Part shown: positions 2,052-58,380 of the stretch, piece after piece
Position numbering within the stretch: the stretch's first letter is position 1
Layout: each line of letters starts with the position of its first letter
Source of the DNA: an uncultured delta proteobacterium
Lineage (GTDB): Bacteria; Myxococcota_A; Polyangia; Fen-1088
NCBI GenBank assembly: GCA_963767925.1
Contig: CAVYGB010000008.1
Location: 1,120,001 to 1,184,000 of the forward strand
DNA: 64,000 bases
Direction of reading: 5' to 3'
Notes under the pieces: model-generated
The model's input: only the letters and a program-made list of their open reading frames with translations
Told to the model about the DNA's origin: nothing
The model's database searches: none
Made by a program: the position numbers and the translations under genes

Positions 2052-2182
2052 AGGAGGCGGGAGGTGTACCACGGCCCGGTGGTTGCGTCAGCGCGACCAG
2101 ACGCAGCATCGTCGCGCTCGGCAGAAATCTTGAGCTTTTTCGCCATCCGCTGCGCCGAGCCTCGTAGAGGTATGCTGTCCGC

Positions 2183-3091
2183 GTGAGTCAGCCGGCGGAC
2201 GCCCTCGATCCCACCCTGGCGGCGCTCGATCCGACCGAGCGGGCCTTCGTGCTGGGCTCGACGGTGCTCGGGCTGGGGCCGGAGAACGCGGCCGTCCTGG
2301 CGGGGCCCGCGGGCGAGCGTTGCGCTGCTGCGCTGCGGACGCTGGCCAAGGTCCCCCGCGACCAGAAGGCCGGCCGCATCGGCCAGCTCGCGCGCGAGCT
2401 GGGCGCGGCCTTTCCTCCTGCGGTCGAGATCGTGCACCCGAGCTGGCTGCCCAAGGCCCTGGCCGCCGAGCCCTCCGATCTCTTGCCCGCCCTGGTAGTG
2501 GGAGCCTCGCCCTCGGTCCGGCAGGCGGTTGGTGAGGTGATGCAGTCCCGCCGCGCCGAGGGGGAGCTGGCCAACCCGGCCACGCTCTCGCCCGAGCTCG
2601 CCGCCGAGCTACGACGGGTGGTCTTTGCCTCGCTGAGGCATGTCTTCGCTGCCTGCCAGGGGCCCCTGGCGGCGGTGCTCGAGCGCACCGGCCCGGGTGC
2701 CCTCCAGGAGGTGCGGCGCCTGGGCGCGCGGTCGCTGGGGGCCTCGCTGGCCGGCTCTCCGCACGAGGTGCTGGCGCGGGCCATGGCGGTGGTGGGCGGG
2801 AGCTTCGCCGGGGATCTTCGCCAGTCCGCCGAGGCGGCTGACCCCGCCGCCCGCCGGGAAGGGGAGGCCGACGTCAAGGCCGCCGCCGCGGACGCGGCCG
2901 CCACCTCCGAGGAGCGGCTCGAGCGGATCGGCCACCGGGCGATGCTCCGGCTGGCGCGGGCCCAGGACGACGAGGTCAAGCGGGCGGTGGCCCTGCGGTT
3001 GCCCCGCGAGCTGGGCAAACACCTCCTCGGCACGGGAGCGGCGGCCGAGGGGGCGCAGGGGGGACGGCGAGGAGCGGGCGACAGGCCATGA
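2183..3091 (+). CDS. Ala/Arg-rich hypothetical protein; positional SctK-like candidate (T3SS sorting platform)
   Basis: First gene of an operon with sctL and sctN, the position SctK occupies in sctJKL clusters. It contains an IVHPSWL motif. The function is inferred from position only. Confidence 0.4.
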   Translation: MSQPADALDPTLAALDPTERAFVLGSTVLGLGPENAAVLAGPAGERCAAALRTLAKVPRDQKAGRIGQLARELGAAFPPAVEIVHPSWLPKALAAEPSDLLPALVVGASPSVRQAVGEVMQSRRAEGELANPATLSPELAAELRRVVFASLRHVFAACQGPLAAVLERTGPGALQEVRRLGARSLGASLAGSPHEVLARAMAVVGGSFAGDLRQSAEAADPAARREGEADVKAAAADAAATSEERLERIGHRAMLRLARAQDDEVKRAVALRLPRELGKHLLGTGAAAEGAQGGRRGAGDRP

Positions 3092-3104
3092 GCAGGAGCG
3101 GGAC

Positions 3105-3692
3105 ATGGGTCGTTTGATGAAAGGCAAGGGGTACGTCGTGCCCCGGGTGGTGATGGGCGCACGCGAGCAGGCGGATCTCCTGCTCGCAGCGGCCCAGTCG
3201 GCCGCCGAGGAGGACCGCCGTCGCGGCTACGAGCAAGGGCTGACCGAGGGGCGCGAGGCCGCCCTCGCGGAGATGACCGAGATCCTGGTGCGGGCCCAGC
3301 AAGAGGCCGACGAGCTGCGCACCGCCAGCAAGGAGGCCGCCATCCCCATCGCCCGTCGCATGGCCGAGCGGATCGTGGGGCGAGCCCTCGAGCTGCACCC
3401 CAGCTTGATCGGCGACATCGCCGCCCAGGCGCTGGCCGCCAGCCGGGCCCGGTCCGGCCTGGTGACCTTGCGGGTGCACCCCGTCGACCTCGTGGCCCTC
3501 GAGCAGGAGCGCCCGCGCCTGGCGGCGCGCCTCGGTGGCGCCCTCGATCTGCAGCTCGTGGCCGACGAGGCCATCGTCCAGGGCGGTTGTATCGTCGAGA
3601 CCACCTCGGGCCGGCTGGACGCCCGCCTCGACCGCCAGCTCGACGCCATCGAAAAGGCCCTCGGGCAAAAGATGAGCGGCTCCCGTTCATGA
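3105..3692 (+). CDS. sctL: Type III secretion stator SctL / FliH family
   Basis: RBS AGGAG then ATG 3105. GxxxG repeat (RGYEQGLTEGRE), LRVHPVD and GGCIVETTSGRLDARLDRQL are FliH/SctL signatures. Confidence 0.85.
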   Translation: MGRLMKGKGYVVPRVVMGAREQADLLLAAAQSAAEEDRRRGYEQGLTEGREAALAEMTEILVRAQQEADELRTASKEAAIPIARRMAERIVGRALELHPSLIGDIAAQALAASRARSGLVTLRVHPVDLVALEQERPRLAARLGGALDLQLVADEAIVQGGCIVETTSGRLDARLDRQLDAIEKALGQKMSGSRS

Positions 3693-3704
3693 GAGGATGA
3701 GACC

Positions 3705-5027
3705 GTGGCAGGCGAAAGGCAGGCTCCGCTGATCGAGCTCGGGGAAGCGCTGGCGGCGCTCGACGAGATAAATCCCCTGCGCATCTCCGGCCGGGTGACC
3801 GAGGTGACCGGTCTGGTGGTCCGGGCCCTGGTCCCGGGCATCCGCATGGGCGAGATGGTGATCATCGAGTGCACCCCGCGTCTGCGGGCCGAGGTGGTGG
3901 GTTTTCGCGGCGACGAGGCGGTCCTGATGCCGCTCGGAGATCTCAGCGGGGTGGGGCCAGACGCCGCGGTCAGCCCGCTGGGCCGACCGCTCTCGATCCG
4001 GATGGGGGAGGGGGTGCTCGGGCGGGTGCTCGACGGCCTGGGTGAGCCGATGGACGGCCTCGGGCCTCTCGCCGGTCCTACCCAGGACTGGGCGGTCGAC
4101 CGAGCGGCGCCCGATCCCCTCCGCCGCCGCCGGGTCGATCGCCCCCTGACCCTCGGCGTGCGGGCCATCGATTCGTTGCTCACCGTGGGGGAGGGCCAAA
4201 GGGTGGGCGTCTTCGCCGGCTCCGGCGTCGGCAAGTCGACCCTCATGGGCCAGATCGCTCGCAACACGGAGGCCGACGTCAACGTCATCTGCCTGGTCGG
4301 CGAGCGTGGTCGCGAGGTCGTCGAGTTCATCGAGGACTCGCTCGGCGCCGAAGGGCGAGCCCGCTCGGTCGTGATCTGCGCCACCAGCGACGTGCCCAGC
4401 CTGGTCCGGCTCAAGTCGACCTTCGTCGCCACCTCGGTGGCAGAGTGGTTCCGCGACCGGGGCTTGCGGGTCCTGCTGATGATGGACTCGGTTACCCGGT
4501 TCGCCCGGGCCCAGCGCGAGGTCGGGCTGGCCGCCGGGGAGCCACCCGCGCGGCAGGGCTACCCGCCCAGCGTGTTCGCCATCATGCCCCGCCTGCTCGA
4601 GCGAACCGGCAACTCCGAGCTGGGATCGATCACGGCGCTCTACACCGTGCTGGTCTCCGGCGGCGACATGGAGGAGCCCATCGCCGACGAGGTGCGCGGT
4701 ATCCTCGACGGCCACATTATCCTGTCGCGCGACCTCGGCGCTCGCAACCACTGGCCGGCCATCGACGTCCTGCCCTCGCTGTCCCGGGTCATGCCGCTGG
4801 TCACCGACGCCGAGCACCGCAAGGCAGCCGGGCGCATGCGCGAGCTGATGGCCACCTACGAGCGCCAGCGCGACCTGATCCTGCTGGGCGCCTACCAGAA
4901 GGGCAGCGACCCACGCACCGACGAGGCCATCGCCAAGATCGACGTCATCAACGCCTTTTTGCGCCAGGGCGTCCAGGAGAACACCCCCTTTGCCGAGACC
5001 CGCCAGCGGCTGATCTCGCTGGTCTGA
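3705..5027 (+). CDS. sctN: Type III secretion ATPase SctN (FliI/YscN family)
   Basis: Walker A GSGVGKS, GERGRE, Walker B LLMMD and FARAQREVGLAAGEPP..GYPPSVF, which reads more like YscN than flagellar FliI. Confidence 0.93.
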   Translation: MAGERQAPLIELGEALAALDEINPLRISGRVTEVTGLVVRALVPGIRMGEMVIIECTPRLRAEVVGFRGDEAVLMPLGDLSGVGPDAAVSPLGRPLSIRMGEGVLGRVLDGLGEPMDGLGPLAGPTQDWAVDRAAPDPLRRRRVDRPLTLGVRAIDSLLTVGEGQRVGVFAGSGVGKSTLMGQIARNTEADVNVICLVGERGREVVEFIEDSLGAEGRARSVVICATSDVPSLVRLKSTFVATSVAEWFRDRGLRVLLMMDSVTRFARAQREVGLAAGEPPARQGYPPSVFAIMPRLLERTGNSELGSITALYTVLVSGGDMEEPIADEVRGILDGHIILSRDLGARNHWPAIDVLPSLSRVMPLVTDAEHRKAAGRMRELMATYERQRDLILLGAYQKGSDPRTDEAIAKIDVINAFLRQGVQENTPFAETRQRLISLV

Positions 5028-5047
5028 CGGGACCGAGGAGAATCGAG

Positions 5048-5392
5048 ATGACCGACTGCCTGTTCTGCAAGCTGCGCGACGGCGGCCTCCCCGCCCAGAT
5101 CACCTACCGCGACGACGACGTCCTCGCCTTCAAGGACATCAAGTCCCAGGCTCCGCTGCACGAGCTCGTGATCCCGACCCGGCACGTCAGCAGCCTCGCC
5201 ACCGCCAAGCCCGAAGACGCCGCCATCCTCGGCAAGCTCATGCTGGTGGCGGCCGAGCGGGCCCGCGACGCCGGATACGACGACAGCGGCTTCCGGGTGG
5301 TCATGAACTCCGGGGCCGACGCCGGCCAGACCGTCTTTCACGTGCACCTGCACGTGCTGGCCGGCCGCCGCCTGGGCTGGCCCCCCGGGTAG
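5048..5392 (+). CDS. hinT: Histidine triad nucleotide-binding protein (HIT)
   Basis: MTDCLFCK, AGQTVFHVHLHVL triad, C-terminal LGWPPG; RBS GAGGAG. Confidence 0.92.
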   Translation: MTDCLFCKLRDGGLPAQITYRDDDVLAFKDIKSQAPLHELVIPTRHVSSLATAKPEDAAILGKLMLVAAERARDAGYDDSGFRVVMNSGADAGQTVFHVHLHVLAGRRLGWPPG

Positions 5393-5416
5393 CTGGCAGG
5401 GCCGGCCCGGCCGGCC

Positions 5417-6394
5417 TCACAGCCGGACTTCGACCAGGGTCTTCTTGCGCAGCTCGCTGAGGTAGATCTTGGTCTGACGCTCCATCTCCTTCTGACGGAG
5501 CTGCAGGCGGAGCTGCTCCTTGACGTCGGCCAGGGGCTTGACGTCGGCGGCGCGGCGGTCGACCAGCTTGATCACGTGAAAGCCCTGGTTGCCGCGCACC
5601 GGACCGCCGATCTCGCCGACGCCCATGGAGAACACCAGCTCCTCCACCGGCTTGGGCAGCCCCATCTCCTTGCCGAAGTAGCCGAGGTCGCCACCTTCGG
5701 CCCGGGTGGCCCGGTCCTCCGATAGCTCCTTGGCCAGGGTGGCGAAGTCCTCCCCGGCCCGGGCCCGGGCCAGGATCTTGCGGGCGTACTCCTCGCGCTC
5801 GAGGACCTTGGCCGCGTCGGCGTTTTCGGGGATGGCGACGAAGATGTGGCTGACCTTGACGTTGTCGTTCTTGCCCGACTTCATGTTCCGCTCGTAGTAG
5901 CTCTCGACGTCGTTGTCGCTGACCTGGATCTTCGAGCCCACGGCGATGTTGATGACCCGGTAGCGCAGGATCTCCTTGCGGGTGTTCTGCCGGTAGGAGG
6001 CCAGGCTCATCCCCTGGCGTCGCAGCTCGTCGGCGAGCTGGGTGTCGCTGAGGCTGTAGTCCTTCTTGATCTGCTCGATCGAGCGGTCGACCTCCTCGCT
6101 GCTGACCGAGAGCTTGAGCTCGTTGGCCTGCTGGAGCAGCAGGTGCTCGTCGACGATCCGCTCGAGCACCTCCCGGCGGAGGGCGGACGTCCGCTGCTTG
6201 CGCTGGTTGGCGTCGGGCAGGGCCGCGATCTCCTCGAGGAAGGGCCGCGACCGTTCGTTGACCTCGCTCTCCAAGACGACCTCGTCACCCACCAGGGCGA
6301 CGATGCGTTCGACGATCCGGGCCTGGGCCGCGGTCGAGGAGGCGGCGGCGACGAGCGCCGCCGCCAGTGGAAGCAGATACTGGCGTTTGCTCAT
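5417..6394 (-). CDS. surA: SurA-like periplasmic chaperone / parvulin PPIase
   Basis: Signal peptide, IVERIVALVGDEVVLESE SurA N-domain, and rotamase motifs SHIFV..EDFATLAKELSED..GGDLG..GFHVIK. Confidence 0.82.
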   Translation of the reverse strand: MSKRQYLLPLAAALVAAASSTAAQARIVERIVALVGDEVVLESEVNERSRPFLEEIAALPDANQRKQRTSALRREVLERIVDEHLLLQQANELKLSVSSEEVDRSIEQIKKDYSLSDTQLADELRRQGMSLASYRQNTRKEILRYRVINIAVGSKIQVSDNDVESYYERNMKSGKNDNVKVSHIFVAIPENADAAKVLEREEYARKILARARAGEDFATLAKELSEDRATRAEGGDLGYFGKEMGLPKPVEELVFSMGVGEIGGPVRGNQGFHVIKLVDRRAADVKPLADVKEQLRLQLRQKEMERQTKIYLSELRKKTLVEVRL

Positions 6395-7302
6395 GGTGGG
6401 CTCTTGATGTCCTTCAGCTTGTCTTCGAAAACCTCGATTTTGACCCGTCCCCGCATCTCCTGCACCCATTCCTCGACTTTCTGCCCCCGCCGCTCCTGGT
6501 GCAGGCGGGTCCTGACCTGCCGCTTCACCTCCTCGAAGGGACGGAGGAACCCGGCCCGCCTTTGCGTCAGCCTGAGGATGTGAAACCCCTTTTCGGTCTC
6601 GACCGGGTCGGAGACGTCACCGATCTGCCGGAGAGCATGAGCGGCGTCGACCACGGGCCGGGGCGGCTCGGGGCTGTCGCGCTCCAGGAAGGTCAGGTCG
6701 CCGCCGCGTTGCTTCGAGTCCTCGTCCCGGGAGTGACGCTCGACGAGGCCCCGGAAGCCCTTCTCGTCGCGCGCCCCCAGGGCCCGGGCCTCCTGGACCA
6801 GGCGGGCGGCGCTCTCCCGATCCTTGACCAGGATCTGGCTCACCCGGACCGCCTCCTTCTGGGTGAACAGGTCGGCGTGGCTCCGGTAGTAGGGCTCGAG
6901 GTCGGCCTCCGGGATGTCCTCCGCCTTGAAGGTCGCGTCCAGCTCCTTGGCGATCATCTCCTCGATCGAGCGCTGCTTGACGAAGCGGACCACGTCGGGG
7001 TCCCGCCGGTAGCCCCGCTTGTCGGCCTCCATCGCCATCACCTCGAAGCGGATGAGGTTCTGCAGGAACTCCTTGCGCCGCTCTGGCGACCGGTAGCGGG
7101 CCTGGGCGTAGGGGGACTGGCGCCCGAGGTGCCGTTCGAAGTCGCTGCGGGTGATGGCCTTCCCGTCGATACGGGCCACCACCTCGGCCTCGTCCTGGCT
7201 CCCCGGCCCGCGCGCCGATCCCCCCGACCCTGCTTCCGTGCGGTCACAGGCGATCAGCAGGCCGAGCCCGAAGCCGATCCGTGCCGCGCACCCTGGGCGC
7301 AT
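6391..7302 (-). CDS. PpiC-type peptidyl-prolyl isomerase, probable lipoprotein (PrsA-like)
   Basis: LLIAC lipobox, VVARIDGKAIT, VSQILV..SKQRGGDL..GFHILRL. Stop overlaps the surA start (ATGA). Confidence 0.8.
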   Translation of the reverse strand: MRPGCAARIGFGLGLLIACDRTEAGSGGSARGPGSQDEAEVVARIDGKAITRSDFERHLGRQSPYAQARYRSPERRKEFLQNLIRFEVMAMEADKRGYRRDPDVVRFVKQRSIEEMIAKELDATFKAEDIPEADLEPYYRSHADLFTQKEAVRVSQILVKDRESAARLVQEARALGARDEKGFRGLVERHSRDEDSKQRGGDLTFLERDSPEPPRPVVDAAHALRQIGDVSDPVETEKGFHILRLTQRRAGFLRPFEEVKRQVRTRLHQERRGQKVEEWVQEMRGRVKIEVFEDKLKDIKSPP

Positions 7303-7443
7303 GGTCTCTAGATGACATGGTCGGCCCGCTGCCCGCAAGCGTGCGGGTTCACCTGCGACCCCGCCCCACACGACCGTCCTCTCCTGGGCCACCCCTTTGC
7401 TTCGATCGACCTGGGCGGTCCAGGTAGCGTAATTTAATAGGAC

Positions 7444-8541
7444 ATGGCACTGAGGTTGGGGGAGCTGCTCATGTCCCGGGGGTTGCTGACGTCCGAGCAG
7501 CTCGCGCAGGCCTTGCACGGCCAGAGCATCTTCGGTGGACGTCTGGGAACCAACCTCGTGGAGATGGGCTTCGTCACCGAGGAGCAGATCGCGGCCAGCC
7601 TGAGCCAGCAGCTCGGTCTGCCCTGCGCGCGCCCGCAATGGGTGGCGGCCATTCCCCGCGAGGTCATAAGCTGCATGTCCCGGGACATCGCCGAGCGGTA
7701 CCGGGTCATCCCCCTCAAGAAAGAGGGGCGAGAGCTGCACGTTGGGCTGGCCGATCCCCAGAACCTCGAGCGGGTGGACGAGCTGAGCTTCGCCACCGGC
7801 TGCCCCTTGCGCGCCTTCGTCATCACCGAGGTGACCCTGAACTACGCGCTCGAGCGGTATTACGGCATCCGGCGCGAGGTCCGCTACCTCAAGCTGGCCG
7901 GCGCCGAGTCGGCCGAGATGCGCCTCACCACCATCGCCGAGAGCGTCGACCATCGGATGGGCATGGCCACCCCGACGCCGGCGACGGCGGCCCACGCCCC
8001 GGCCGGTTCCGCGCTGGCGGCTCCCGGCACCCATGTCGCCCAGGCGCTCGCCGACACGCCCAACTCCGACCTCGTCGAGCGGCTGGCCAGCGTGATGTCC
8101 GACACCGACTTCCTGGAGATCGTGTTCGCCTTTCTGATCCGGCTGTTCGACGACGTCGCCATCCTGGTGCCGCGGGGCGAGTCGGTCCAGGGCATCATGA
8201 TCGGCAACGGGACCGCCCGCCGCCCCTACGCCAGCGCCCTGCACGCGCCCTGCGGGCCCGGCACCTTGCTGGGGGAGGTGGTCAGCAAGGCCCAGATCGC
8301 CTACCGGGCCGAGCTCACCGACGACGGCCTGCTCGCCTTCTGTCACGCGGCCGGCATCCGCGCGGCCCGCATCGCCGTCATCCCCATCTTCGACAACCGG
8401 GCGCCCGTGCTGATCGCGCTCGGGCAGGGGATGGAGCAGCCGATCCTCGTCGAATACATCGACCAGATCCGGACCTTCCTGGCCAAGGCCTCGAGCGCCT
8501 TCCAGATCATCGCCCTGCGCAAGCAGATCCTCGCGCGCTGA
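7444..8541 (+). CDS. Stand-alone MshEN / T2SSE_N domain protein (c-di-GMP receptor candidate), no ATPase domain
   Basis: Tandem 24-aa motifs RLGELLMSRGLLTSEQLAQALHGQ and RLGTNLVEMGFVTEEQIAASLSQQ with a 5-aa linker, then a T2SSE_N-like domain. No Walker A motif. Confidence 0.85.
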   Translation: MALRLGELLMSRGLLTSEQLAQALHGQSIFGGRLGTNLVEMGFVTEEQIAASLSQQLGLPCARPQWVAAIPREVISCMSRDIAERYRVIPLKKEGRELHVGLADPQNLERVDELSFATGCPLRAFVITEVTLNYALERYYGIRREVRYLKLAGAESAEMRLTTIAESVDHRMGMATPTPATAAHAPAGSALAAPGTHVAQALADTPNSDLVERLASVMSDTDFLEIVFAFLIRLFDDVAILVPRGESVQGIMIGNGTARRPYASALHAPCGPGTLLGEVVSKAQIAYRAELTDDGLLAFCHAAGIRAARIAVIPIFDNRAPVLIALGQGMEQPILVEYIDQIRTFLAKASSAFQIIALRKQILAR

Positions 8542-8565
8542 CCGGTCCGGACGCGCCGCGGCCGA

Positions 8566-12162: not shown

Positions 12163-12230
12163 TGGGCTGGGCTTTTTACCTCACGTCGGGCGGGCGAGCC
12201 GACGCCGCGTTGCCTTCGCGGTGGGCGTGT

Positions 12231-12258
12231 TGACCCCCCCTGCCGGGCGGGCTATCGT
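12231..12258 (+). promoter_or_regulatory. Sigma70-type promoter of the IPT/TIG lipoprotein gene
   Basis: TTGACC-N16-TATCGT, 25 nt upstream of ATG 12284. Confidence 0.5.
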
Positions 12259-12283
12259 CCAGTCCTCGGAAGGGGCCAGCCAC

Positions 12284-12718
12284 ATGAAAATTTTGCCGTC
12301 ATTGTCGGTGTTTGCGGTGATGCTGTCGCTGGCCGCCTGCCAGAGCAAGGGCCAGCTCACGATCGACGAGGTCGAGCCCAACACGGGGATAACGCCCGGC
12401 GGGGACCAGGTCGTCATCAAGGGCGCTGGCTTCGAGCCGGGCAAGACCCAGGTCGAGGTGCGCTTCGGCCGGGCCAAGGCCGACCAGGTCAGCATCACCT
12501 CGGCCGGCACCATCGTGGTGGTGACCCCGCCCGGGGACAAGGGGCCGGTCGATGTCACGCTGATGTTCGACCACGGCCCCCAGTTCAAGATCCCCCAGGG
12601 CTTCCGCTACGTCCCGACCACGACCGCGGACGACGTGCGCAAGGCGTTCTACTCGAACACCCCGCCCGGCACAAAGGCCGGCCAGACCAACACCGCCACG
12701 ACTCCGCCGCCCAAATAG
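12284..12718 (+). CDS. IPT/TIG domain lipoprotein
   Basis: Lipobox LAAC; IDEVEPNTG..GGDQVVIKGAGF..VRFG..VVTPPG..GPVDV..FRY is the IPT/TIG pattern. Confidence 0.8.
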   Translation: MKILPSLSVFAVMLSLAACQSKGQLTIDEVEPNTGITPGGDQVVIKGAGFEPGKTQVEVRFGRAKADQVSITSAGTIVVVTPPGDKGPVDVTLMFDHGPQFKIPQGFRYVPTTTADDVRKAFYSNTPPGTKAGQTNTATTPPPK

Positions 12719-12758
12719 GGTCAGCGAGGCGGGCGGGGGGCGCGGGCAGCGCCGTCGA

Positions 12759-13934
12759 TCAGCGGAACGACGCCCGGAAGAGCTGCTGCCCCATGAGCAG
12801 CAGGCTCCCCGAGGGGATCACCCGGTTGCCCCGGATGCGGAAGAAGGTGCCGTTGGAGGATCCCAGATCGGAGAGGAAGACCTCGCTGTTGCGCAGCGTG
12901 ATCTGGGCGTGGGTGCCCGAGACGTAACCGTCCTCGGGAAACAGGATGTCTCCGCGCTCCCGCCCCAGCACGACGGCCTCGTCGAACAGGGGGAAGGCCG
13001 GGCCGTCGACGTCGCGGCCCACGATCACCGACACCCGCCCCCAGAAGCCCGGATTCGGGGTCCCGATGATCTCGGTCCCGTCTTCGAGCGGCACCGGCGC
13101 CGAGATGGCATCGAAGCGGAGCAACTCCTGACCGATGCGCAGGATGTCCCCCGACTCGAGCTTCTCCTCGTGCGTGATCTTGATGAAGACCCCGTTGAGG
13201 CTGCGCAGGTCCCGGACGACGAGCCCCTCGGCGGTGAAGGTGAACTCCGCGTGGCGCGGTGACAGGTAAGGGTCGGCATCGAACAGGGACCCCTGTCCGC
13301 GGCCGATCAGGTTCTCCGCCTCGTGCAGCGGATGGACCCCCCCTTCGGTCCCGTCGGGACGGATGAGGGTCAGGTGGCCACGGGGGGCCGGCCGGGCCGA
13401 GGGGACGCCCGAAGCCATGTACATGGTGCGGGCGGCCGAGACGGCGCCGCCGGCGGCAGGTTTCATGCGCTGGCCACAGGACCCGCAGAAGGCGTAGGTG
13501 GAGACCACCATCTTCCCGCAGGAGGGGCAGGCGATCATGTCTCGCGCTCCCACCGTTCCGCTGCCCGCGCCATCGGTCAGGGGCTGGATGGGGGCCGGTG
13601 ACAGCGGGCCGGGGGAGGGGGTGGGTGTGAGGATCGACCCGCTCACCCCGCCCGGGCGCTTGGAGACCCCCGAGGGGGTCGGCTGAAAGACCGCCTGGGC
13701 GCCGGGGATGCCGGCCGGAACCGGGGGCAACACGGGCGCGGGGCCCATCCCGGCGGTCAGCGCGGGGCCGGGCGACGGTGGGGTCTTGGTGCGGACCGGG
13801 CCGGTCGGCTCGCCAGGCGGAGCGGCGCCGACCGCCGGCGGGGGCGCCGCGGGAGCCTCGAGCTTGGCGCCGCACCCCAGGCAGAACTTGTAGTGTTTCT
13901 GGTTCTCTTTTCCGCAGCGGGCACAGGTGATCAC
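12759..13934 (-). CDS. Zinc-ribbon + tandem FHA domain protein
   Basis: Two CxxC..FCxxCG ribbons, a Pro-rich linker, and two FHA domains with GR, SxxH and NG motifs. GTG start with GGGAG RBS. Confidence 0.87.
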   Translation of the reverse strand: MITCARCGKENQKHYKFCLGCGAKLEAPAAPPPAVGAAPPGEPTGPVRTKTPPSPGPALTAGMGPAPVLPPVPAGIPGAQAVFQPTPSGVSKRPGGVSGSILTPTPSPGPLSPAPIQPLTDGAGSGTVGARDMIACPSCGKMVVSTYAFCGSCGQRMKPAAGGAVSAARTMYMASGVPSARPAPRGHLTLIRPDGTEGGVHPLHEAENLIGRGQGSLFDADPYLSPRHAEFTFTAEGLVVRDLRSLNGVFIKITHEEKLESGDILRIGQELLRFDAISAPVPLEDGTEIIGTPNPGFWGRVSVIVGRDVDGPAFPLFDEAVVLGRERGDILFPEDGYVSGTHAQITLRNSEVFLSDLGSSNGTFFRIRGNRVIPSGSLLLMGQQLFRASFR

Positions 13935-13965
13935 GACGTACTCCCAGGCGTTGTGTCAGCGTGTG

Positions 13966-14952
13966 TCATGCGACCTCCACGCGCAAGAGCTGCTGGCCGA
14001 TGAAGACGAAGTCGCCGTTCACCAGGGGCGCCTCCTCCGCGATCCGGATGAAGGTGCCGTTCTTCGATCCGAGGTCCGTCAGGGTGAACAGCCCGTCGGC
14101 CCCGATCCCCACCTGGGCGTGCCGGCCCGAGATGAACGGATCGTCGGGGAAGTTGACGTCGCTGCCCTCGCGCCCGATCGAGATGGTGTCGCCCCGCGCG
14201 CGGTAGATGATCCCGATGCCCCCGCCCCGCAGGCGCTGGGTCAGTCGCATCTTGGAGGCGCGCCGGGGGCTCGCGTAGTAGTAGGTGCCCTCGGCGTCGG
14301 GCTGGGGGCCGAAGTCGGGGGCCGAAGCCTCCACCTGGAGGAGCTGCTCGCCGACCAGGAACAGGCCCCCCGATTCGATGGGGACGGCGTTGCGGATGCG
14401 GACGAAGACTCCGTTTGTCGACCCTTCGTCGCGAACCAAGAGCTTGCCGTCGCGGTAGATGAAGTTGGCGTGCCGGGGCGACAGGAGGGCGTCTTCCGGG
14501 AACAGGATGGCCCCTTCGACCCGTCCGACCAGGTGCTCGTTCCCGTTGAGCTGGTAGCTGATGCCGTCGCCGTTGTCCCCCTTGACCAGGACCAGCTTGG
14601 CCTTGCTCTGCTGCTGTAGGCCCGAGAAGTACATGGTCTTGCTGGGACCGGTGGGAGGCGCGGGGTCCGCCGCGGCCAGCCGGGCGCCACACTTGCCGCA
14701 GAAGCGGTCGTCGACCGGCACCGGGTTGCTGCAGCCTGGGCAGTTCTTCATCGACATCGAGGCCTCCATGCGGGCAGCGCCCTCCCCTGGGTTACCTCCC
14801 CCGCGAGGCTCGATGGGGTGGACCGGCGCTTTGGACCCGGCGCCCGCCACGGCGACTCCATTCCAGCCGAGAGCCGCCCCGCAAGCGGGGCATCGGGCAA
14901 CTCCGAGATCCGTCAGTGCATCGCACTGGGGACAAACGAATCCGACGGGCAT
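13966..14952 (-). CDS. Zinc-ribbon + tandem FHA domain protein (paralog)
   Basis: CPQC..CPACG and CPGC..FCGKCG, then two FHA domains (VGR..SPRH..STNG; IGR..SGRH..SKNG). Confidence 0.87.
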   Translation of the reverse strand: MPVGFVCPQCDALTDLGVARCPACGAALGWNGVAVAGAGSKAPVHPIEPRGGGNPGEGAARMEASMSMKNCPGCSNPVPVDDRFCGKCGARLAAADPAPPTGPSKTMYFSGLQQQSKAKLVLVKGDNGDGISYQLNGNEHLVGRVEGAILFPEDALLSPRHANFIYRDGKLLVRDEGSTNGVFVRIRNAVPIESGGLFLVGEQLLQVEASAPDFGPQPDAEGTYYYASPRRASKMRLTQRLRGGGIGIIYRARGDTISIGREGSDVNFPDDPFISGRHAQVGIGADGLFTLTDLGSKNGTFIRIAEEAPLVNGDFVFIGQQLLRVEVA

Positions 14953-15057
14953 CCGATTCGATCATGCTCTTGGGCTCGGACCTGTCAATAAGAACGGCAA
15001 GGTTATTGCCTGATGGGAGCCCAAGAACGGACGCAACGGACGCCTTCACCTTCACCT

Positions 15058-18000
15058 TCACCCGCCGCCCGGACGGGGGCGCGCTGTCGCTGGACCGACT
15101 GCGGGACCGACATTGTCCGCCGGGCGGCTCCCGGCCGACGCTCGCCGGGCGGCCGCCCGGACCAGCGGGCTCGGGTCTTCGAGCGCGGGCCGCAGCAGCG
15201 GATCGGGTGGCTGACCGGCCAGGCCCAGGGCCTCCACCGTGGCCAGCCGGACCGACCATGCGGGGTGGGCGAGGAGCCGGGGCGCCTGCTGCCACAGCCG
15301 CTGGCTGTCGAGCGCCGTCCACTGTCCCCGGCTCCGGAGGGCGGCCAGCGCCTGCAGGGCCACCTGAGCCGGATCGAGGCCCTCGAGGTCGGCGGCGCCG
15401 CTCGCCTGGGCGGGACCGCGCCCGGCCGCCTCCCGGAGCGCGGAGACGATGTGGGTGCTCGTGATCCGGCCGTCCTGCAGGCGGGTCGCCAGCCGCAACG
15501 CCCTCAGTCGCACAACGGTGTCCGGGTCGGTCAGCAGCCGGCCGAGCGACTCCCGCAGCCGGGCGGCCAGCGCCGCCCGCGGTCCAGCCAGCCCGCCGCT
15601 GGCGGCGCTGCCGTCGAGCGTGACGAGCGCGCGCCGCCGGTCCTCGACCCGTCCCCGCAGGGCAGCCTCGAACAGCTCGGCGATCTCGCCGGCGTGCTCG
15701 ACGAAGAGGCCCTCCACCTCGACCTCGGCGTCGCGGGGCAGGGCACACAGCTCGTCGAGCAGGGGGCCCGGATCCAGGCGGTCCCCCCGGATCGAGGGCG
15801 CGTCGTCGGGGATGGCCGCCTCGGAGGCGTGGGTGGCGAGGGCGAGGGCGGCGACCTCCTGGCTCTGGCCGCCACCGAGCAGGGCGCGCCGCCAGAGCCC
15901 CGCGAGCGCGCTCCGTTCCCGCAACACACCCACCGCACAGGCGGCCGAACGGGCCAGCAGGGGGTCGGAGGCGTCGAGCAACGGGAGCAAGGTCCCGTCG
16001 GGATCCGGCGCCCGCGCCATCGCCAGCCCCACGAGGGCCGCCCGGCGGGCGTCGACCGGGCGGCTCGCATCGAGGGCCATGCTGCGCAGGGCCTGGCTGG
16101 CGCTGCCGGTCCCGAGCCGCCCGAGCCCGAGCGCCGCGAAGGCGGCCACCTCGCCGCGGGGATCCCGGGTCGCCGTCCGCAGGCTCGCTTCCGCCTCGAC
16201 CATCTCGAGTCGGCCGAGCGCCCACACCGCCGCCGCCCGCAGCCGGGCCTCCGGGTGGACGCTCAGCTCCAGCAGCCGGGCGAGGGCCGGGCGCGCCTTC
16301 AAACGGCCGAGCGCGACGAGCGCCGCGACCGCCACCCGCTCGGCCTGGGCGGTGTCGACCAGGTCGCTCGCGTCGGCCCGGGGGTCCCCGGCCACCGGGA
16401 CCGCCTCTGGCTCGGGGTCCCGGTCCACCTCGAGCAGCCGGAGCAGGGCCGGCAAGACGTCCCGATTTCCTGCCATCCCAGCCAGCTCGATGACGGCCGG
16501 ATCCGGCGCTCCGTCGGGGTCGATCAAGACGGCGATGAGCGGGCGGCTCGCCCCACCCGCCAGATCCAGCCAGCGCGCGCGGGCCCCCTCGTCGCGGCCG
16601 GCCCGGCGGTAGAGCGCGGGCAGGACGCGGCGGTACACCTCGACGACGAGGCGGCGCTCGCCCGCGCTGGCCGCGACCGGCTCGGCCGCCAGCCGTTCGA
16701 GCAGGTCGGGCAGCTCTCCCGCGTATTCCGCGATGTCGAGCTCCCGCGCGATCAGATCGGCCCGGGTTTCTGGATCCGAGCTGTTCCGCCCGGCGGCGCG
16801 CAGCACATCGAGGGCCTCCGCCGCCTGCCCCCGCCGCACCAGGAGGTCGGCGGCCGAGAGGGCGGCCTTGGCCGAGGCCGGCTCACCGAGCGCAGCCCGG
16901 AGGCTCTCCAGCGCCAGGTCGGGCTGGCCGGCCCGGTCCTGCAGCTCGGCCGCTCGGAGCAGCACCTCGGGCGCCCGCCTGGCCAGCTCGACCGCCCGGG
17001 AGGCGGCGGCCATGGCCGCCTGGTCCTCGTAGCGCTCCAAACGGATCTCGGCGATCTGCAGCAGCGCCTCGGGGGCCCGGGCCGGGACCTGGTCGGCGAA
17101 GCGCTCCAGCCAGGTCACCGCCCGGTCGGTCTGGCGGGACTGGCGCAGCAGCCGCACGAGCATGAGCACCAGCTCGGCGTCCCCCGGTGCGGACCCGCAG
17201 GCCGCGGTGAGGGTCTGGACCGCCTCGGCCGGCGCCTGCAGCTTGAGCTGCAGCTCCGCCAGGAAAAGCGCCGCCTCGCGGTCCTCGGGGTGCCGACCGA
17301 CCCGGTCCTTGAGCAGGACGGTCTCTGCCCGCAACCGCTCGCGGCCCTCCCGGGCCAGCAGGTTGACGATGCGCGCCCGCGCCTCCCGGCGCTCGTGGCT
17401 GCGCTGCGGGCCCAGGCTCTTTTGCAGGACCGACCGCCACTCCGAGACGGCCGCGGACAGCTCCCGCTTCTTCTCCAGGATGCGGGCGAGCGTCCGGTGG
17501 TGGGCCGGCTCGGCGGGCTCGAGCCGCTGCGCCGCGCGGGCCAGCGGCAGGGCCTCGTCGAGCAGGTCGTGGTCGCCCAGCAGCTCGGCCAGACGGGCGT
17601 GGGCGGCCGCGGGTGGCTTGACCACCCGGAGCAGGCCCTGCCAGGTGCGGCGGGCCAGCTCGCGCCGGCCGGACTGGAAGTGGGCCTCCCCCAGGCCGAC
17701 GATGGCCCGCTCGTCGCGGGGGTCGAGCGCGAACAGGGCGTCCCAGCAGGCCAGCACCCGCTCCCCCTCGTTCCAGCGCGAGGCCAGATCCGCCAGCCGG
17801 ACCAGCGCGGGGGGCGAGCGCCGCAGCCGCCGGAGGGCCTGATCGAACCGCCGCTGGGCGTCCTGGCGCTGCCCGCGGCGGTACTTGCGCTCGATCATCT
17901 CGAGGACCGTGTCGGTGTCGACGCCCAGGCGGGCGACGCTGGCCTCGTAGACGCGGGCCACCTCGTCGTCGCGGCCCAGGCGATCGAGCAAGGCCACCAG

Positions 18001-19053
18001 CTTCCGGGTATGGAGACCGTGGCCCGGCTCCTGCCGGTGAAGCGCCTCCCAGGCCCGCGCGGCGCCCGGATAGTCGCCCAGCTCCTCGCGCAGCTCGGCC
18101 AGCGCCTGCCAGGCGGGCACCTGGTCGATGCGGCTACCACCGGTGGTCCGGGCAGCCAGCCAGGGCTCGAGATCGACCCCCCGGCCGCGCCGGAGGGCCA
18201 GCCGCACCACCTGACGATAGAGCTCGAGCCGCTCGGAGGGGGGCGCCGACCGGCGCTCGATCGCGGCGCGCAGGATCTTCTCCGCCGCCTCGGGGTCGCC
18301 GGCCGCTTCGCGCAAGGCGGCCGCCTGCAGCGCCAGTCTGGTTCGCCGGCTGCCGCCGAGCCCGGAGCGGGCCAGGAGCTGCTCGACCGCGTCCGCGCCC
18401 TCGGCGGCATGTCCACCCCGGCCCAGCGCCCGGGCCAGCGCCAGCACCAGCGCGGGGTCGCCGGGCCGCGCGGCCAGCAGGTGTCGACGGACCTCGATCT
18501 CGATCGCGGCCAGGCCGAGGCGATCGGCCAGCGCGGCTGTCCGCTGCAGGAGGTCCCGGCGGCGCCCGGGCGAGCGCTCCCGCGCCGCCGCCGCCTGGTA
18601 ATCCCGCACAGCAGGAGTCAACTGCCCCAGGTGCTCAAGCGCACGCGCCCGCCCCAGCAAGGGGGCCGCCGCTGCGGGGTCGAGCGAGACGGCCCGGTCG
18701 AACTCTGGCCGGGCCTGCCCGGGACGCCCGGCGGCCAGGAGCAACTGGGCGTGCGCCAGCACGGCCGGGTAGGGGGCGCCTGTCGCGCGCGCCGCCGTGC
18801 CGGTGCGCTCGAGGAGGCGCTCGGTCTCCAGCGCGCCGGCTCCCCGGATCACCGCGGCGGCCAGGCCCGGATCATCCGGGCGTGCCCGCAAGGCTCGGAG
18901 CGCCTGCTCGCGCTGCGCCCGAGGCTGGTCCCGCTTGACCTGCCAGTCGGCGGCGACCGCGGGAGCGGCGAGCGCCAGCGATAGAAACCCGCAGCCGGCG
19001 ACCACCCGCAGCCACCGCGCCAGAGCCGGCCTCGCGGCTGCTAGGGGGCGCAT
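15058..19053 (-). CDS. Large exported TPR + HEAT-repeat protein (~1330 aa)
   Basis: Signal-like ALAAPAVAA, many TPR-like helical repeats, then HEAT-like repeats (RAAAVWALGRL, VRLATVEALG, LEDPSPLVRAAA). Start approximate. Confidence 0.72.
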   Translation of the reverse strand: MRPLAAARPALARWLRVVAGCGFLSLALAAPAVAADWQVKRDQPRAQREQALRALRARPDDPGLAAAVIRGAGALETERLLERTGTAARATGAPYPAVLAHAQLLLAAGRPGQARPEFDRAVSLDPAAAAPLLGRARALEHLGQLTPAVRDYQAAAARERSPGRRRDLLQRTAALADRLGLAAIEIEVRRHLLAARPGDPALVLALARALGRGGHAAEGADAVEQLLARSGLGGSRRTRLALQAAALREAAGDPEAAEKILRAAIERRSAPPSERLELYRQVVRLALRRGRGVDLEPWLAARTTGGSRIDQVPAWQALAELREELGDYPGAARAWEALHRQEPGHGLHTRKLVALLDRLGRDDEVARVYEASVARLGVDTDTVLEMIERKYRRGQRQDAQRRFDQALRRLRRSPPALVRLADLASRWNEGERVLACWDALFALDPRDERAIVGLGEAHFQSGRRELARRTWQGLLRVVKPPAAAHARLAELLGDHDLLDEALPLARAAQRLEPAEPAHHRTLARILEKKRELSAAVSEWRSVLQKSLGPQRSHERREARARIVNLLAREGRERLRAETVLLKDRVGRHPEDREAALFLAELQLKLQAPAEAVQTLTAACGSAPGDAELVLMLVRLLRQSRQTDRAVTWLERFADQVPARAPEALLQIAEIRLERYEDQAAMAAASRAVELARRAPEVLLRAAELQDRAGQPDLALESLRAALGEPASAKAALSAADLLVRRGQAAEALDVLRAAGRNSSDPETRADLIARELDIAEYAGELPDLLERLAAEPVAASAGERRLVVEVYRRVLPALYRRAGRDEGARARWLDLAGGASRPLIAVLIDPDGAPDPAVIELAGMAGNRDVLPALLRLLEVDRDPEPEAVPVAGDPRADASDLVDTAQAERVAVAALVALGRLKARPALARLLELSVHPEARLRAAAVWALGRLEMVEAEASLRTATRDPRGEVAAFAALGLGRLGTGSASQALRSMALDASRPVDARRAALVGLAMARAPDPDGTLLPLLDASDPLLARSAACAVGVLRERSALAGLWRRALLGGGQSQEVAALALATHASEAAIPDDAPSIRGDRLDPGPLLDELCALPRDAEVEVEGLFVEHAGEIAELFEAALRGRVEDRRRALVTLDGSAASGGLAGPRAALAARLRESLGRLLTDPDTVVRLRALRLATRLQDGRITSTHIVSALREAAGRGPAQASGAADLEGLDPAQVALQALAALRSRGQWTALDSQRLWQQAPRLLAHPAWSVRLATVEALGLAGQPPDPLLRPALEDPSPLVRAAARRASAGSRPADNVGPAVGPATARPRPGGG

Positions 19054-19274
19054 CGGCTGCGCAGGTAGACGCGAACCGCCTCCTTGACCTGCGCCGGCAT
19101 CTCGAGGGCCAGCGCCTGCCGCGAGATCTCGGGGGTGCGGCGGTAAGTCTCGAAAAACGTGACACAGGGGGCGCACACCGAGAGATGGCGCTGGAACCGT
19201 CCTTGCTCCTCTTCGGGGAGGACTCCCTCCAGGTATTCGAGGCAGAAATCCAGCACGTCCTGGCAGCCGATCAT
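19041..19274 (-). CDS. Small zinc-binding anti-sigma-like protein (zf-HC2, 77 aa)
   Basis: MIGCQDVLDFCLEYLEGVLPEEEQGRFQRHLSVCAPC contains HxxxCxxC. RBS GAGG present. Overlaps the start of the TPR/HEAT gene. Confidence 0.8.
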   Translation of the reverse strand: MIGCQDVLDFCLEYLEGVLPEEEQGRFQRHLSVCAPCVTFFETYRRTPEISRQALALEMPAQVKEAVRVYLRSRCAP

Positions 19275-19345
19275 GTCCTCACTCCCGAAGCCGGGCCGAA
19301 ATATAACCGACGTGAACGAATTCCGCACAACCTGGGGCGGCGATG

Positions 19346-19353
19346 GCCGATAA
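19346..19353 (+). promoter_or_regulatory. Possible sigma28/FliA-type -10 element upstream of the sctP-like gene
   Basis: Exact GCCGATAA, 8 nt before ATG 19362. The expected -35 position reads ACAA, a weak match to TAAA. Confidence 0.35.
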
Positions 19354-19361
19354 AGCCCTCC

Positions 19362-20189
19362 ATGGTGCAGCGAATCGCAGGGAAGGACTCCGCCTCCAGC
19401 GCTTCGGATGCTCAGGGCCCGAAGCGTCAAGAGGAGCGTGCCCCGGCGGACCGCGCCGCCAAGTTCCGCGACATGCTCGGCCCCGGAGCTCAGCGCGAAG
19501 CCGCCGGGCAGGAGCGGGCCAAGAACGCCGGCCGTGCTGGGGCCGAGGGTGCGCCCGGGGCGGCGGGCGCGACCGCGGGCACGAAGCCGAACGGCGCCGG
19601 CCAGGCTGACCCAGGCGGCGCCGGGGCAACCGGTCGGTCCGGACCGGGTACGCCCGCCGAGGTCGCCGCAGCCGCCAGGGACTTGCAGGCTGCCCTGGAC
19701 GAGATCGGAGTGAAGGCCACCCAGGTGCGCGGCGGGGGCGGCAAGGCGGGCGGCGAAGACGCTGGCGGAGAGGCCGCCGCTCTCGGCGCCCAGCTCGCCA
19801 GCGCCATGGGCGCCCCTTCCTGGGGGCGGCCGGAGGGGCCGACCCGGGTCGAGGCCGCCGGCCGGATGATGCCCGCCGAGATGGAGGGCATGGAGAAGAT
19901 GCACAGGCTCCTCATCGGCCAGGGGCCGCAGGGAGCCGAGGCTCGGCTGTCGATCACCGACGGTCCGCTGGCCGGGGCGCAGATCCACCTCAAGACCGGC
20001 CCGGGCGGGGTCCAGGCCGCTGTCTCGACCAGCACCGAATCGTCGCGCCAGACCCTGGTCTCGGCGATGGAAGAGGTCGCCCGCCGCATGAAGGACAAGG
20101 GCCACCGCCTGAGCGTTCAGCAGGCTCCACCGCCCACCCGTCCCGAGCACTCCGGCTGGCCACCCGACCAGGGGGGACAGACTCCCTGA
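19362..20189 (+). CDS. SctP/FliK-like ruler / substrate-switch candidate
   Basis: Long low-complexity Gly/Ala N-terminal region, then a compact C-domain (EARLSITDGPLAGAQIHLK..GVQAAV..LVSAMEEVARRMKDKG) resembling FliK_C/T3S4. Lies directly upstream of sctQ. Confidence 0.55.
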   Translation: MVQRIAGKDSASSASDAQGPKRQEERAPADRAAKFRDMLGPGAQREAAGQERAKNAGRAGAEGAPGAAGATAGTKPNGAGQADPGGAGATGRSGPGTPAEVAAAARDLQAALDEIGVKATQVRGGGGKAGGEDAGGEAAALGAQLASAMGAPSWGRPEGPTRVEAAGRMMPAEMEGMEKMHRLLIGQGPQGAEARLSITDGPLAGAQIHLKTGPGGVQAAVSTSTESSRQTLVSAMEEVARRMKDKGHRLSVQQAPPPTRPEHSGWPPDQGGQTP

Positions 20190-20218
20190 CCGGCGGAGAC
20201 CGTCGGAGAGCGGGCTGA

Positions 20219-21301
20219 ATGGCCAGGCAGGTCAAGGCCTTCGCCTACGAGGGATTACCCACCGTGCCCGCGATGTCCGTGGCCAACGCCCGATCGCTGG
20301 CCCGGGCCCTGGCCGCGAGCGGCGGCTTCGGGACGATCAACGCGCGTGGGCTCGGCCGCCTGCAGCTCGCGGTCGAGCGGGTGGATGTCAGCCCGTGGAA
20401 GGGCGATCCGGGAGCGCACCCCTCGCCCGAGACCGGCTTCATGCTCGTCCGGGTCGACGGTACGTTCGGCTGCGTGACGGTGGAGCGCTTCTTCGCCCTG
20501 GGCCTCGTGCGGATGGTTCTGGGGGCGCCCGCGCCGCCGGTGTTGCGGCCGCTGAGCCCTTCGGAGCGGGGCGTGCTGGGGGCCATCGTGGCCGCGGTGC
20601 TGGCCTCGACCGGAGGGAGCACGCGGGTCTCGCTCGAACGGCCGCGGCCCCCCGAGGGGGAATACGTCGGGTTGAACCTGCTGGCGCGCACGTCGACCCT
20701 GTCTGGCGGCGCCTTGCTGGAGCTCCCGGTGAGCTGGTTGCCGGCCCGGGCCGGCCCGCTGTCCGCGGATGCGAGCTGGCTGCTCGAGACCGTCCTCGTG
20801 ATCGAGGCCGGCAGGACCTCGCTGCCAGGCGGCGCTTTTGCGACCGCCGAGGTTGGCGACGTGGTGGTTTTTGAGGGAGTATCTGCCCTTCGTGATGACT
20901 CCCCGTGGCCTTGCGAGCTGCGCCTCGGTCCCAACCGAGCCCCGGCGCTGCTGGTATCCAGTGGAGAGCTGCGCCTCGAGGCAGCCTTCGTCCTCGGCCC
21001 GCAACCGGCGGCAGAGTCCGACATGAGCGACGAGCAGGATCCCCGCGCGGAGGGCTTCGCGCCGGAAGCCGCGGCGGTGCTGGCCTCGGCCCCGGTCGAG
21101 ATCGTGGCCGAGCTAGGCCGGATTGCCCTGCGAGGGGACGAGGTGCTCGGCTTGACCAGCGGCTCGGTGCTGCCGCTCGGTCCCCGCCGGCGGGACCTGG
21201 TCACCTTGCGGGTGGGGGGCCGGATCTGGGCCCGGGGCGAGCTGGTTCACATCGAAGAGGAGCTCGGCGTTCGCATCACCGAGGTCCTCCGACCGCGCTA
21301 G
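20219..21301 (+). CDS. sctQ: T3SS C-ring protein SctQ (FliM/FliN SpoA domains)
   Basis: C-terminal SpoA motif PVEIVAELGRIAL..GSVLPL..VTLRVGGRIWARGELVHIEEELGVRITEV, plus an earlier degenerate SpoA segment (VIEAGRTSL..EVGDVVV). Confidence 0.8.
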   Translation: MARQVKAFAYEGLPTVPAMSVANARSLARALAASGGFGTINARGLGRLQLAVERVDVSPWKGDPGAHPSPETGFMLVRVDGTFGCVTVERFFALGLVRMVLGAPAPPVLRPLSPSERGVLGAIVAAVLASTGGSTRVSLERPRPPEGEYVGLNLLARTSTLSGGALLELPVSWLPARAGPLSADASWLLETVLVIEAGRTSLPGGAFATAEVGDVVVFEGVSALRDDSPWPCELRLGPNRAPALLVSSGELRLEAAFVLGPQPAAESDMSDEQDPRAEGFAPEAAAVLASAPVEIVAELGRIALRGDEVLGLTSGSVLPLGPRRRDLVTLRVGGRIWARGELVHIEEELGVRITEVLRPR

Positions 21302-58359: not shown

Positions 58360-58380
58360 ATCGGACCTCGGGAGACGTTG

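Follow-up and report, generated by a model that had tools for sequence, protein, structure and literature searches.

Here we describe two short groups of type III secretion system (T3SS) genes in 64 kb of contig CAVYGB010000008.1 from an uncultured delta proteobacterium of the Myxococcota; the whole 64,000-nucleotide stretch is called the window below. On the best reading, the two groups are collinear fragments of a Myxococcota-type, needle-less T3SS cluster and together make up its cytoplasmic module: fragment 1 (2183-5392) is a compact operon of orf302, sctL, sctN and the passenger gene hinT, and fragment 2 (19362-21301) holds an SctP-like open reading frame (ORF; orf334) and sctQ (Table 1). 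We consider it probable that they belong to a functional, vertically inherited T3SS of the Myxo type that is dispersed over the genome, with its export gate encoded elsewhere in that genome. A first-pass annotation made from the letters alone had likewise seen a domesticated, dispersed T3SS derivative; its split mini-operons among core genes are borne out. Fragmentation is not peculiar to this genome: the 11 other non-Myxococcaceae Myxococcota loci of an ATPase tree are fragmented as well.

The fragments lie on the same strand, and from the sctN stop to the SctP-like start there are 14,334 nt (the 14.3 kb of the first-pass annotation) with about ten unrelated genes. Intergenic gaps are 13, 12 and 20 nt along orf302-sctL-sctN-hinT and 29 nt between the SctP-like ORF and sctQ, so that each fragment reads as a single operon. 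Writing X for the gene in the slot before sctL, both the [X-L-N] and the [P-Q] fragment have the order and strand of the contiguous Myxococcaceae cluster, which runs TPR, FliA/WhiG-like sigma factor, sctJ, FliG_C-like, sctL, sctN, YscO-like sctO, SctP with Flg_hook, sctQ with FliM and FliMN_C domains, FliO, sctR, S, T, U; the window fragments are without sctJ, sctO and all genes downstream of sctQ.

Components of the two fragments

SctN exceeds the cutoff of the T3SS ATPase equivalog model TIGR02546 (611.2 bits against 604.75), whereas its scores with the FliI clade 1, 2 and 3 models (553.5, 580.6 and 512.7 bits) each fall under the model's own cutoff. Against PDB structures, EscN (6njo, E 9.8e-116) and FliI (5b0o, E 1.2e-114) are nearly equal. 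The protein carries GSGVGKS at residue 172, GERGRE at 199 and LLMMDS at 257, which we take to be intact nucleotide-binding and catalytic motifs, with GSGVGKS as the P-loop. With these motifs present and a nonsynonymous divergence (dN) like that of typA (see below), the ATPase looks intact, as the first-pass annotation had supposed, and strongly constrained. Upstream of it, the stator protein SctL matches FliH PF02108 (67.8 bits against a 24.1-bit cutoff, E 1.1e-18); the sctL start was refined to the ATG at 3105, preceded by AGGAG and 13 nt past the orf302 stop. Downstream, hinT, which begins 20 nt past sctN, is probably a co-transcribed housekeeping passenger, and the sctN-hinT adjacency is also found in three of the four closest loci (L001, L003 and L012; L numbers denote the related loci described in the next section).

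The protein encoded by orf302 has no match in Pfam or NCBIfam, every one of the 29 clusters of its family is labelled hypothetical, and its AlphaFold2 model is all-helical (pLDDT 85.4). The first-pass annotation had placed sctK-like, sctL and sctN genes between typA and hinT; the layout and the identities of sctL and sctN stand, and the name sctK-like holds by position only. Indeed, an assignment to SctK was rejected, as no SctK appears in the protein's own Pfam and NCBIfam matches, in those of its 29 relatives (E <= 1) or in the 50 Foldseek rows listed. Rather, hhalign matches the family to FliG_C-like proteins encoded ahead of sctL in four contiguous clusters (94.7%, E 5.7e-8, 265 columns), and its neighbours in a language-model atlas, where they bear names, are FliG families without exception. 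It is on these two results and on the missing SctK match that we call the protein FliG-like: as judged from its sequence, orf302 is a FliG-like adaptor in the SctK position and a homologue of the FliG-like protein that fills this slot in the contiguous clusters. The FliG_C model itself matches 4 of the 29 relatives (best E 0.015). Foldseek of the orf302 model against the PDB returned nothing at E <= 0.001, with FliG 3hjl, 8wiw and 1lkv at E 2.2-3.4, a multi-domain helical model being a poor query.

The 275-aa ORF ahead of sctQ likely, although this is not proven, encodes an SctP/FliK-type protein with a disordered N-terminus and a T3S4-type C-terminal domain. Across its family of 23 relatives the N-terminal two-thirds are disordered and the C-terminal domain is conserved; in the AlphaFold2 model this domain forms four strands and a helix (pLDDT ~76-89). 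The assignment draws on weak Flg_hook (PF02120) matches in 21 of the 23 family members (best E 8.9e-5), on atlas scores of 0.92 for Flg_hook, 0.91 for HpaP and 0.90 for SPAN, and on a position immediately 5' of sctQ, shared with the SctP genes of L033 and L037. The family had no match among PDB profiles, and Foldseek of the model against the PDB gave nothing at E <= 0.001 (FliK 2rrl ranks 39th, E 0.47), the largely disordered model being a poor query. We also considered GCCGATAA, which lies at 19346-19353 (+), 8 nt 5' of the SctP-like ATG, is the sole copy in the window and presumably corresponds to the sigma-28 -10 consensus. As a sigma-28 element it was rejected as evidence: 0.56 copies are expected, 42 of 100 shuffles contain at least one, and the six copies that 373 kb of Myxococcota loci contain also come close to what chance would give.

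SctQ, the pod or C-ring protein, matches FliMN_C (67.1 bits against a 23.8-bit cutoff, E 1.3e-18), a domain present in 40 of 40 members of its family, and 72 representatives come in at E <= 1e-30; with the SctQ of the contiguous cluster L033 it shares 27% identity over 343 aa. A predicted complex links the two fragments. From alignments of 40 rows for SctQ and 29 rows for orf302, whose genes are 17 kb apart, the modelled pair reaches a median ipSAE interface score of 0.72 (runs 0.71, 0.74 and 0.72), against 0.00 for the best of three controls, and passes a mark that 116 of 157 solved complexes reach and only 2 of 215 mismatched pairs. The runs have 75% or more of their contacts in common, and partner pLDDT is at least 74; the predicted interface joins residues 17-43 of orf302 to 114-140 of SctQ, including the invariant SctQ G118. 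The model thus supports docking of orf302 on the N-terminal domain of SctQ.

Relatives, phylogeny and selective constraint

Relatives were found by one genome-collection scan with SctN as the query. The closest are uncultured Myxococcota metagenome-assembled genomes (MAGs), with SctN identities of 76% (L001), 74% (L012), 73% (L014) and 72% (L003); Myxococcus xanthus (L030) shares 65%, so that the window comes not from Myxococcus but from a deeper, uncultured lineage of the phylum. In an 81-row ATPase tree, a Myxococcota clade of 23 that includes M. xanthus has a support (SH-aLRT, approximate likelihood-ratio test) of 99. Within it, the 11 contiguous loci form one clade (support 100) and the 12 fragmented rows, the window among them, form its sister clade (support 87), while ten Acidobacteriota-type rows are the next sister (support 99) and Firmicutes and other FliI sequences fall outside. 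In this tree the ATPase groups with needle-less Myxococcota systems and not with Firmicutes-type FliI.

The 11 contiguous loci are of Myxococcaceae type and have a fixed order in a tblastn presence matrix, an order also read by Pfam in L030, L033 and L037. Beyond them, fragmentation is seen in all 11 other non-Myxococcaceae Myxococcota loci of the tree (L029 being unjudgeable downstream), which argues that it is old and lineage-wide, and tblastn found no gate gene within 10 kb of sctN in any of these 11. L012 reads typA(-), an orf302-like gene, sctL, sctN, hinT, an unannotated ORF, surA(-), ppi(-), mfd(-), with phosphate-metabolism genes and no gate upstream of typA. The junctions of typA and X-L-N-hinT recur in L001 and L012 and partly in L003, and L014 has L-N amid other housekeeping genes; since the same layout occurs in independent MAGs, it is not a misassembly. 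Fragments of other content are J-?-L-N-O followed by housekeeping genes in L010, L004 and L002 (L002 by tblastn only) and L-N-O on the 5-kb contig of L029 (tblastn only), and sctN is solitary in L006, L013 and L039.

Some features of these loci stand apart from the comparison. The ORFs after hinT in L012, L003 and L001 are unrelated to one another, to cluster components and to the window, and typA of L001 (6840-8344, -) is split into two overlapping ORFs by a frameshift or assembly error. In the Myxococcaceae clusters L033 (17956-18234) and L037 (9361-9645), a full-length sctU is followed by a separate gene of ~92 aa, whose match to FlhB/SctU is confined to the C-terminal part (profile positions 260-335). 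Acidobacteriota-type MAGs (L005, L007, L008, L009, L018, L026 and L042) have compact clusters by tblastn, in the order sigma, short J, L, N, O, P, Q, FliO, R, S, T, U.

When the window is compared with the four loci closest to it, dN is 0.16-0.22 for sctN, beside 0.13-0.14 for typA and 0.26 for mfd; it is 0.21-0.47 for hinT, 0.33-0.64 for surA, 0.39-0.60 for sctL and 0.64-0.66 for orf302. On these values sctN appears about as constrained as typA, and sctL and orf302 (40-58% and 35-37% identical to their syntenic relatives) evolve at the pace of peptidyl-prolyl isomerases (PPIases). The orf302 family retains 25 invariant columns over 29 clusters and the SctP-like family 24 over 23. To judge from such comparisons, the T3SS genes of the window are not decaying. 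Nor is there any sign of their recent transfer: as the first-pass annotation had noted, no mobility gene is found by Pfam among 49 window ORFs and codon style resembles that of the flanks, with a third-position G+C (GC3) of 0.79-0.91 in the T3SS genes and 0.83-0.94 in their neighbours.

The putative export gate and rival explanations

In the reading that we favour, the cluster would once have been contiguous (J, FliG-like, L, N, O, P, Q, FliO, R, S, T, U) and would have come apart in an ancestor common to the non-Myxococcaceae lineages. Its dispersed pieces would still be expressed, and their products would assemble on a membrane gate of SctJ and SctRSTUV whose genes lie elsewhere in the genome. 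SctN would be held via SctL on SctQ pods, which the FliG-like protein would tether to the membrane ring; it would unfold substrates and pass them into the gate, with the T3S4 domain of SctP as a specificity switch acting on SctU. The known partner of an SctP-type switch domain is the gate protein SctU, so that conservation of such a domain argues for a gate. Furthermore, Table S4 of PMC11509652 places gate genes of Bradymonabacteria at distant sites: in YN101, sctV at 0.85 Mb, sctT and sctU at 3.53 Mb and sctN at 5.99 Mb, and in SEH01, sctN, sctV and sctS-sctR on separate sites or scaffolds. As the Bradymonabacteria sctN genes (L002 and L004) fall in the fragmented clade, a dispersed gate exists in one lineage of that clade. 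A search with SctR of L033 is neutral on a gate in the source genome, the best 120 of 7,648 matches being all from Myxococcaceae at 72% identity or more. By analogy with the T3SS* of M. xanthus, a role in predation is plausible.

A number of observations weigh against this reading. Pfam and tblastn detect no membrane or gate component in the 64-kb window, and sctO is in neither fragment. Several components score under model cutoffs: SctL with TIGR02499 (69.5 bits, equivalog cutoff 78.7), SctQ with TIGR02551 (91.0 bits, cutoff 100.8) and the window SctP-like protein with Flg_hook (15.8 bits, E 0.013, cutoff 29.8). With a two-sequence alignment of cluster SctP proteins, hhalign gives the SctP-like family 3%, the aligned part being the C-terminal domain of both, and at E <= 0.001 Foldseek is null for the orf302 and SctP-like models alike. 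The passing SctQ-orf302 model may partly reflect likeness to FliG-FliM complexes, which have been solved. The search behind the ATPase tree was quick and used LG+G4; the tree has SH-aLRT as its only support, lacks a canonical injectisome SctN, and bears composition flags on L003, L012 and L014. The synteny of L012 stops after mfd, so that linkage of fragments 1 and 2 is not shown to be conserved, and apart from the window's own, orf302-family and orf334-family clusters give no sign of sharing a contig. Finally, synonymous divergence (dS, 0.5-1.5) is saturated and GC3-compressed, which makes the absolute dN/dS of 0.18-0.71 unreliable; only relative dN is relied upon, and of the dN/dS estimate suggested by the first-pass annotation it is the relative constraint on sctN that remains.

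The absence of a gate nearby invites two other explanations, in which there is none to be found. The fragments might be an orphan cytoplasmic module, the gate having been lost and the ATPase and sorting platform kept as an unfoldase or chaperone hub or docked on another envelope machine. This is rather unlikely in our estimation: it would account for the missing gate genes, both in the 64 kb and, in the 11 other fragmented loci, up to 10 kb from sctN, for the solitary sctN of L006, L013 and L039, and for the few T3SS homologs that surveys, in their accessible parts, mention for bins outside the Myxococcaceae (PMC10469934, PMC11821767), but it leaves the retention and conservation of an SctP/FliK-type switch domain unaccounted for, and Bradymonabacteria, inside the fragmented clade, encode sctV and sctR, S, T, U at distant sites. 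It is less probable again that the platform (FliG-like, L, N, P, Q), without a gate of its own, has been rewired to another envelope machine or a signalling scaffold as a free-standing ATPase module with a new client. A candidate scaffold of this kind would be the FHA-domain proteins encoded between and beside the fragments; their FHA domains match Yop-YscD_cpl, the Pfam model of the SctD cytoplasmic domain, at E 1e-11, 4e-9 and 6.6e-18.

Other explanations concern what the genes are or were. The names FliH, FliMN_C and Flg_hook are flagellar and orf302 is FliG-like by atlas and hhalign, so the set could comprise fliG, fliH, fliI, fliK and fliN/M of a flagellar export system, the rest of which lies elsewhere or has decayed. 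We hold this to be quite improbable. The near-equal scores of SctN with FliI_clade2 (580.6 bits) and with PDB FliI and EscN, and a tree that has no canonical injectisome ATPase, speak for it, but the SctN model is passed where three FliI equivalog models are not, and the ATPase is nested in a clade of Myxococcaceae clusters that encode a ring protein of the short SctJ type (TIGR02544, E 1e-40, under cutoff) and YscO-like proteins and are published as needle-less non-flagellar T3SSs (NF-T3SSs; PMC3459982). Moreover, flagellar rod, hook, filament and stator families are absent from the 49 window ORFs scanned and from the scanned ORFs of L001, L003, L004, L006, L010, L012, L013, L014, L024, L030, L033, L037 and L039. 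That the genes are decaying leftovers, non-functional relics under relaxed selection, is very improbable; the broken cluster, the missing sctO and the fast divergence of orf302 and sctL would fit, yet all five ORFs are intact, sctN diverges like typA, the invariant columns of the orf302 and orf334 families persist, and the island is kept in relatives whose SctN is only 72-76% identical. As for a contiguous cluster split by misassembly, we give it next to no credence, given the identical typA and X-L-N-hinT junctions in the independent MAG contigs L001 and L012 (partly L003), and given that the longest contig recorded for the protein cluster of the window itself measures 3,312,238 bp.

Known systems and the rest of the window

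Among non-flagellar T3SSs, the needle-less 'Myxo' systems are considered the earliest branch, and those of M. xanthus function in the lysis of prey. The window shares with the M. xanthus or 'Myxo' NF-T3SS the same families (FliG_C-like, SctL, SctN, SctP and SctQ) with relative order and strand unchanged, no needle, secretin or translocon lies close to either, and their ATPases fall in one clade (support 99). In the window, unlike in the contiguous Myxococcaceae clusters, 14.3 kb separate L-N from P-Q, both pairs sit among core genes, and close by there is neither a cluster sigma factor nor a TPR chaperone, nor any of J, O, FliO, R, S, T and U; the window SctN is only 65-67% identical to that of Myxococcaceae, and the Pfam FliM domain that SctQ of L033 and L037 has is found in 0 of 40 members of the window-type SctQ family. 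The M. xanthus loci are T3SS* (MXAN_2434-2464) and T3SS(2) (MXAN_5643-5654); L030 is an M. xanthus locus. Flagellar FliG, FliH, FliI, FliK and FliM/N have Pfam families in common with the window, and the ATPase scores near-equally against FliI and SctN structures; the flagellum differs in that the window has no flagellar structural genes, its ATPase stays under the FliI cutoffs, and its clade is defined by clusters containing SctJ and YscO. Chlamydial systems, for their part, are complete injectisomes with needle, secretin and translocon, belonging to another NF-T3SS family in another phylum. Like the window, Chlamydiales NF-T3SSs spread one machine over several loci amid unrelated genes (PMC3459982). 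The T3SS* of Bradymonabacteria, in the same fragmented ATPase clade (L002 and L004), likewise has its genes over distant chromosomal sites (PMC11509652), although its sctN fragment is J-?-L-N-O, whereas the window has FliG-like-L-N without J or O and P-Q close by.

Needle-less Myxococcaceae T3SSs have been published (PMC3459982, Abby & Rocha 2012; PMC10433427; PMC12075869; PMC10196010). In the accessible literature, the only treatment of T3SS dispersal in Myxococcota that we found is Abby & Rocha (PMC3459982), who report that T3SSs are scattered in Chlamydiales and in a small number of other groups and that Cystobacterineae have contiguous loci of a 'long' and a 'short' kind, and who mention, in the legend of their Fig. 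5, runs of 4-16 unannotated genes. For Bradymonabacteria the dispersal is visible in the table of PMC11509652, and no discussion of it was found in the accessible text. The present comparison shows that non-Myxococcaceae Myxococcota keep a strongly constrained set of ATPase and sorting platform in fragments, the smallest being a solitary sctN next to genes for ribosomal proteins; detectors that look for clusters will overlook such fragments or score them as degenerate. That the protein before sctL is FliG-like is relevant to the evolutionary path from the flagellar C-ring to the sorting platform of injectisomes. Should the gate be encoded elsewhere in the genome, this would be a second, independent fully dispersed T3SS after that of Chlamydiae; if the genome has none, the ATPase module would have acquired a new role.

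Genes of the window, whose G+C is ~70%, were called from third-position GC and scanned with Pfam and NCBIfam. Beyond the matches already named, Pfam detected no family of T3SS, flagellar, secretin, needle or mobility proteins among 49 ORFs (18 and 31), and 31 cluster proteins of related loci, run by tblastn against the whole window, matched sctL, sctN, sctQ and, weakly, one HEAT-repeat gene; the first-pass annotation was thus right that the window has no other T3SS or flagellar structural gene. It had set fragment 2 between an anti-sigma-like and a glgA-like gene, of which the former is real (zf-HC2) and the latter a weak match.

Table 1. Features of the window around the two T3SS fragments, with the basis of each assignment
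Feature	Position	Strand	Basis
typA	183-2072	-	TIGR01394, 913 bits, above cutoff
orf302, FliG-like adaptor (by sequence) in the slot before sctL	2183-3091	+	no Pfam/NCBIfam match of its own
sctL (FliH/SctL stator), 195 aa	3105-3692	+	FliH PF02108
sctN (T3SS ATPase), 440 aa	3705-5027	+	TIGR02546
hinT (HIT hydrolase)	5048-5392 (start ATG 5048)	+	HIT PF01230, 87.8 bits, E 8e-25
two SurA/PPIase genes	after hinT	-	gene map
MshEN / cyclic di-GMP-binding-domain gene	7444-8541	+	Pfam/NCBIfam
mfd	between MshEN gene and FHA genes	-	gene map
two zinc-ribbon genes, two FHA domains each	12759-13934, 13966-14952	-	Pfam/NCBIfam
TPR/HEAT gene, ~1331 aa	15058-19053	-	TPR and HEAT Pfam matches; start refined by frame and GC3
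zf-HC2 anti-sigma-like ORF, 77 aa	19041-19274	-	31.1 bits, cutoff 22.2
SctP/FliK-like ORF, 275 aa	19362-20189	+	weak Flg_hook in family; position before sctQ
sctQ (pod / C-ring protein), 360 aa	20219-21301	+	FliMN_C
glgA-like glycosyltransferase	21298-22683	-	weak match to glgA models, 95 bits, cutoff 328
FHA-GGDEF ORF	24542-26650	+	Pfam/NCBIfam

The zf-HC2 ORF, which also has an RsrA-like NCBIfam match under cutoff, overlaps the start of the TPR/HEAT gene by ~13 nt, and the pair is divergent from sctP-sctQ. The N-terminus of the TPR/HEAT protein is signal-peptide- or lipobox-like, and its HEAT part weakly resembles the HEAT-repeat protein of the L033 T3SS cluster (E 4.9e-5). Together with the MshEN gene and the two zinc-ribbon/FHA genes of Table 1, the FHA-GGDEF ORF makes the surroundings of the two fragments rich in signalling genes. 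This ORF overlaps an acyl-CoA ligase gene on the opposite strand, so its real start is probably later. The other 40 kb of the window are housekeeping (mutS, holA, mutY, proS, pcm, rplM-rpsI, an NtrC-type pair and others). An Rfam scan of the window gave no family at gathering thresholds; ARAGORN called a 92-nt tRNA-Ala (GGC) at 50980-51071 (+), without an Rfam tRNA match; the call is perhaps spurious, or the gene atypical.

In two related loci, ribosomal protein genes lie near T3SS genes. In L013 (9872-13453) the solitary sctN is ~1.2 kb from rplM-rpsI, in L010 (7229-16851) the J-L-N-O fragment is ~4 kb from rpsI-rplM, and in the window rplM-rpsI lies at 57910-58779, 53 kb from sctN; the T3SS cluster and the rplM-rpsI operon may share an old linkage.

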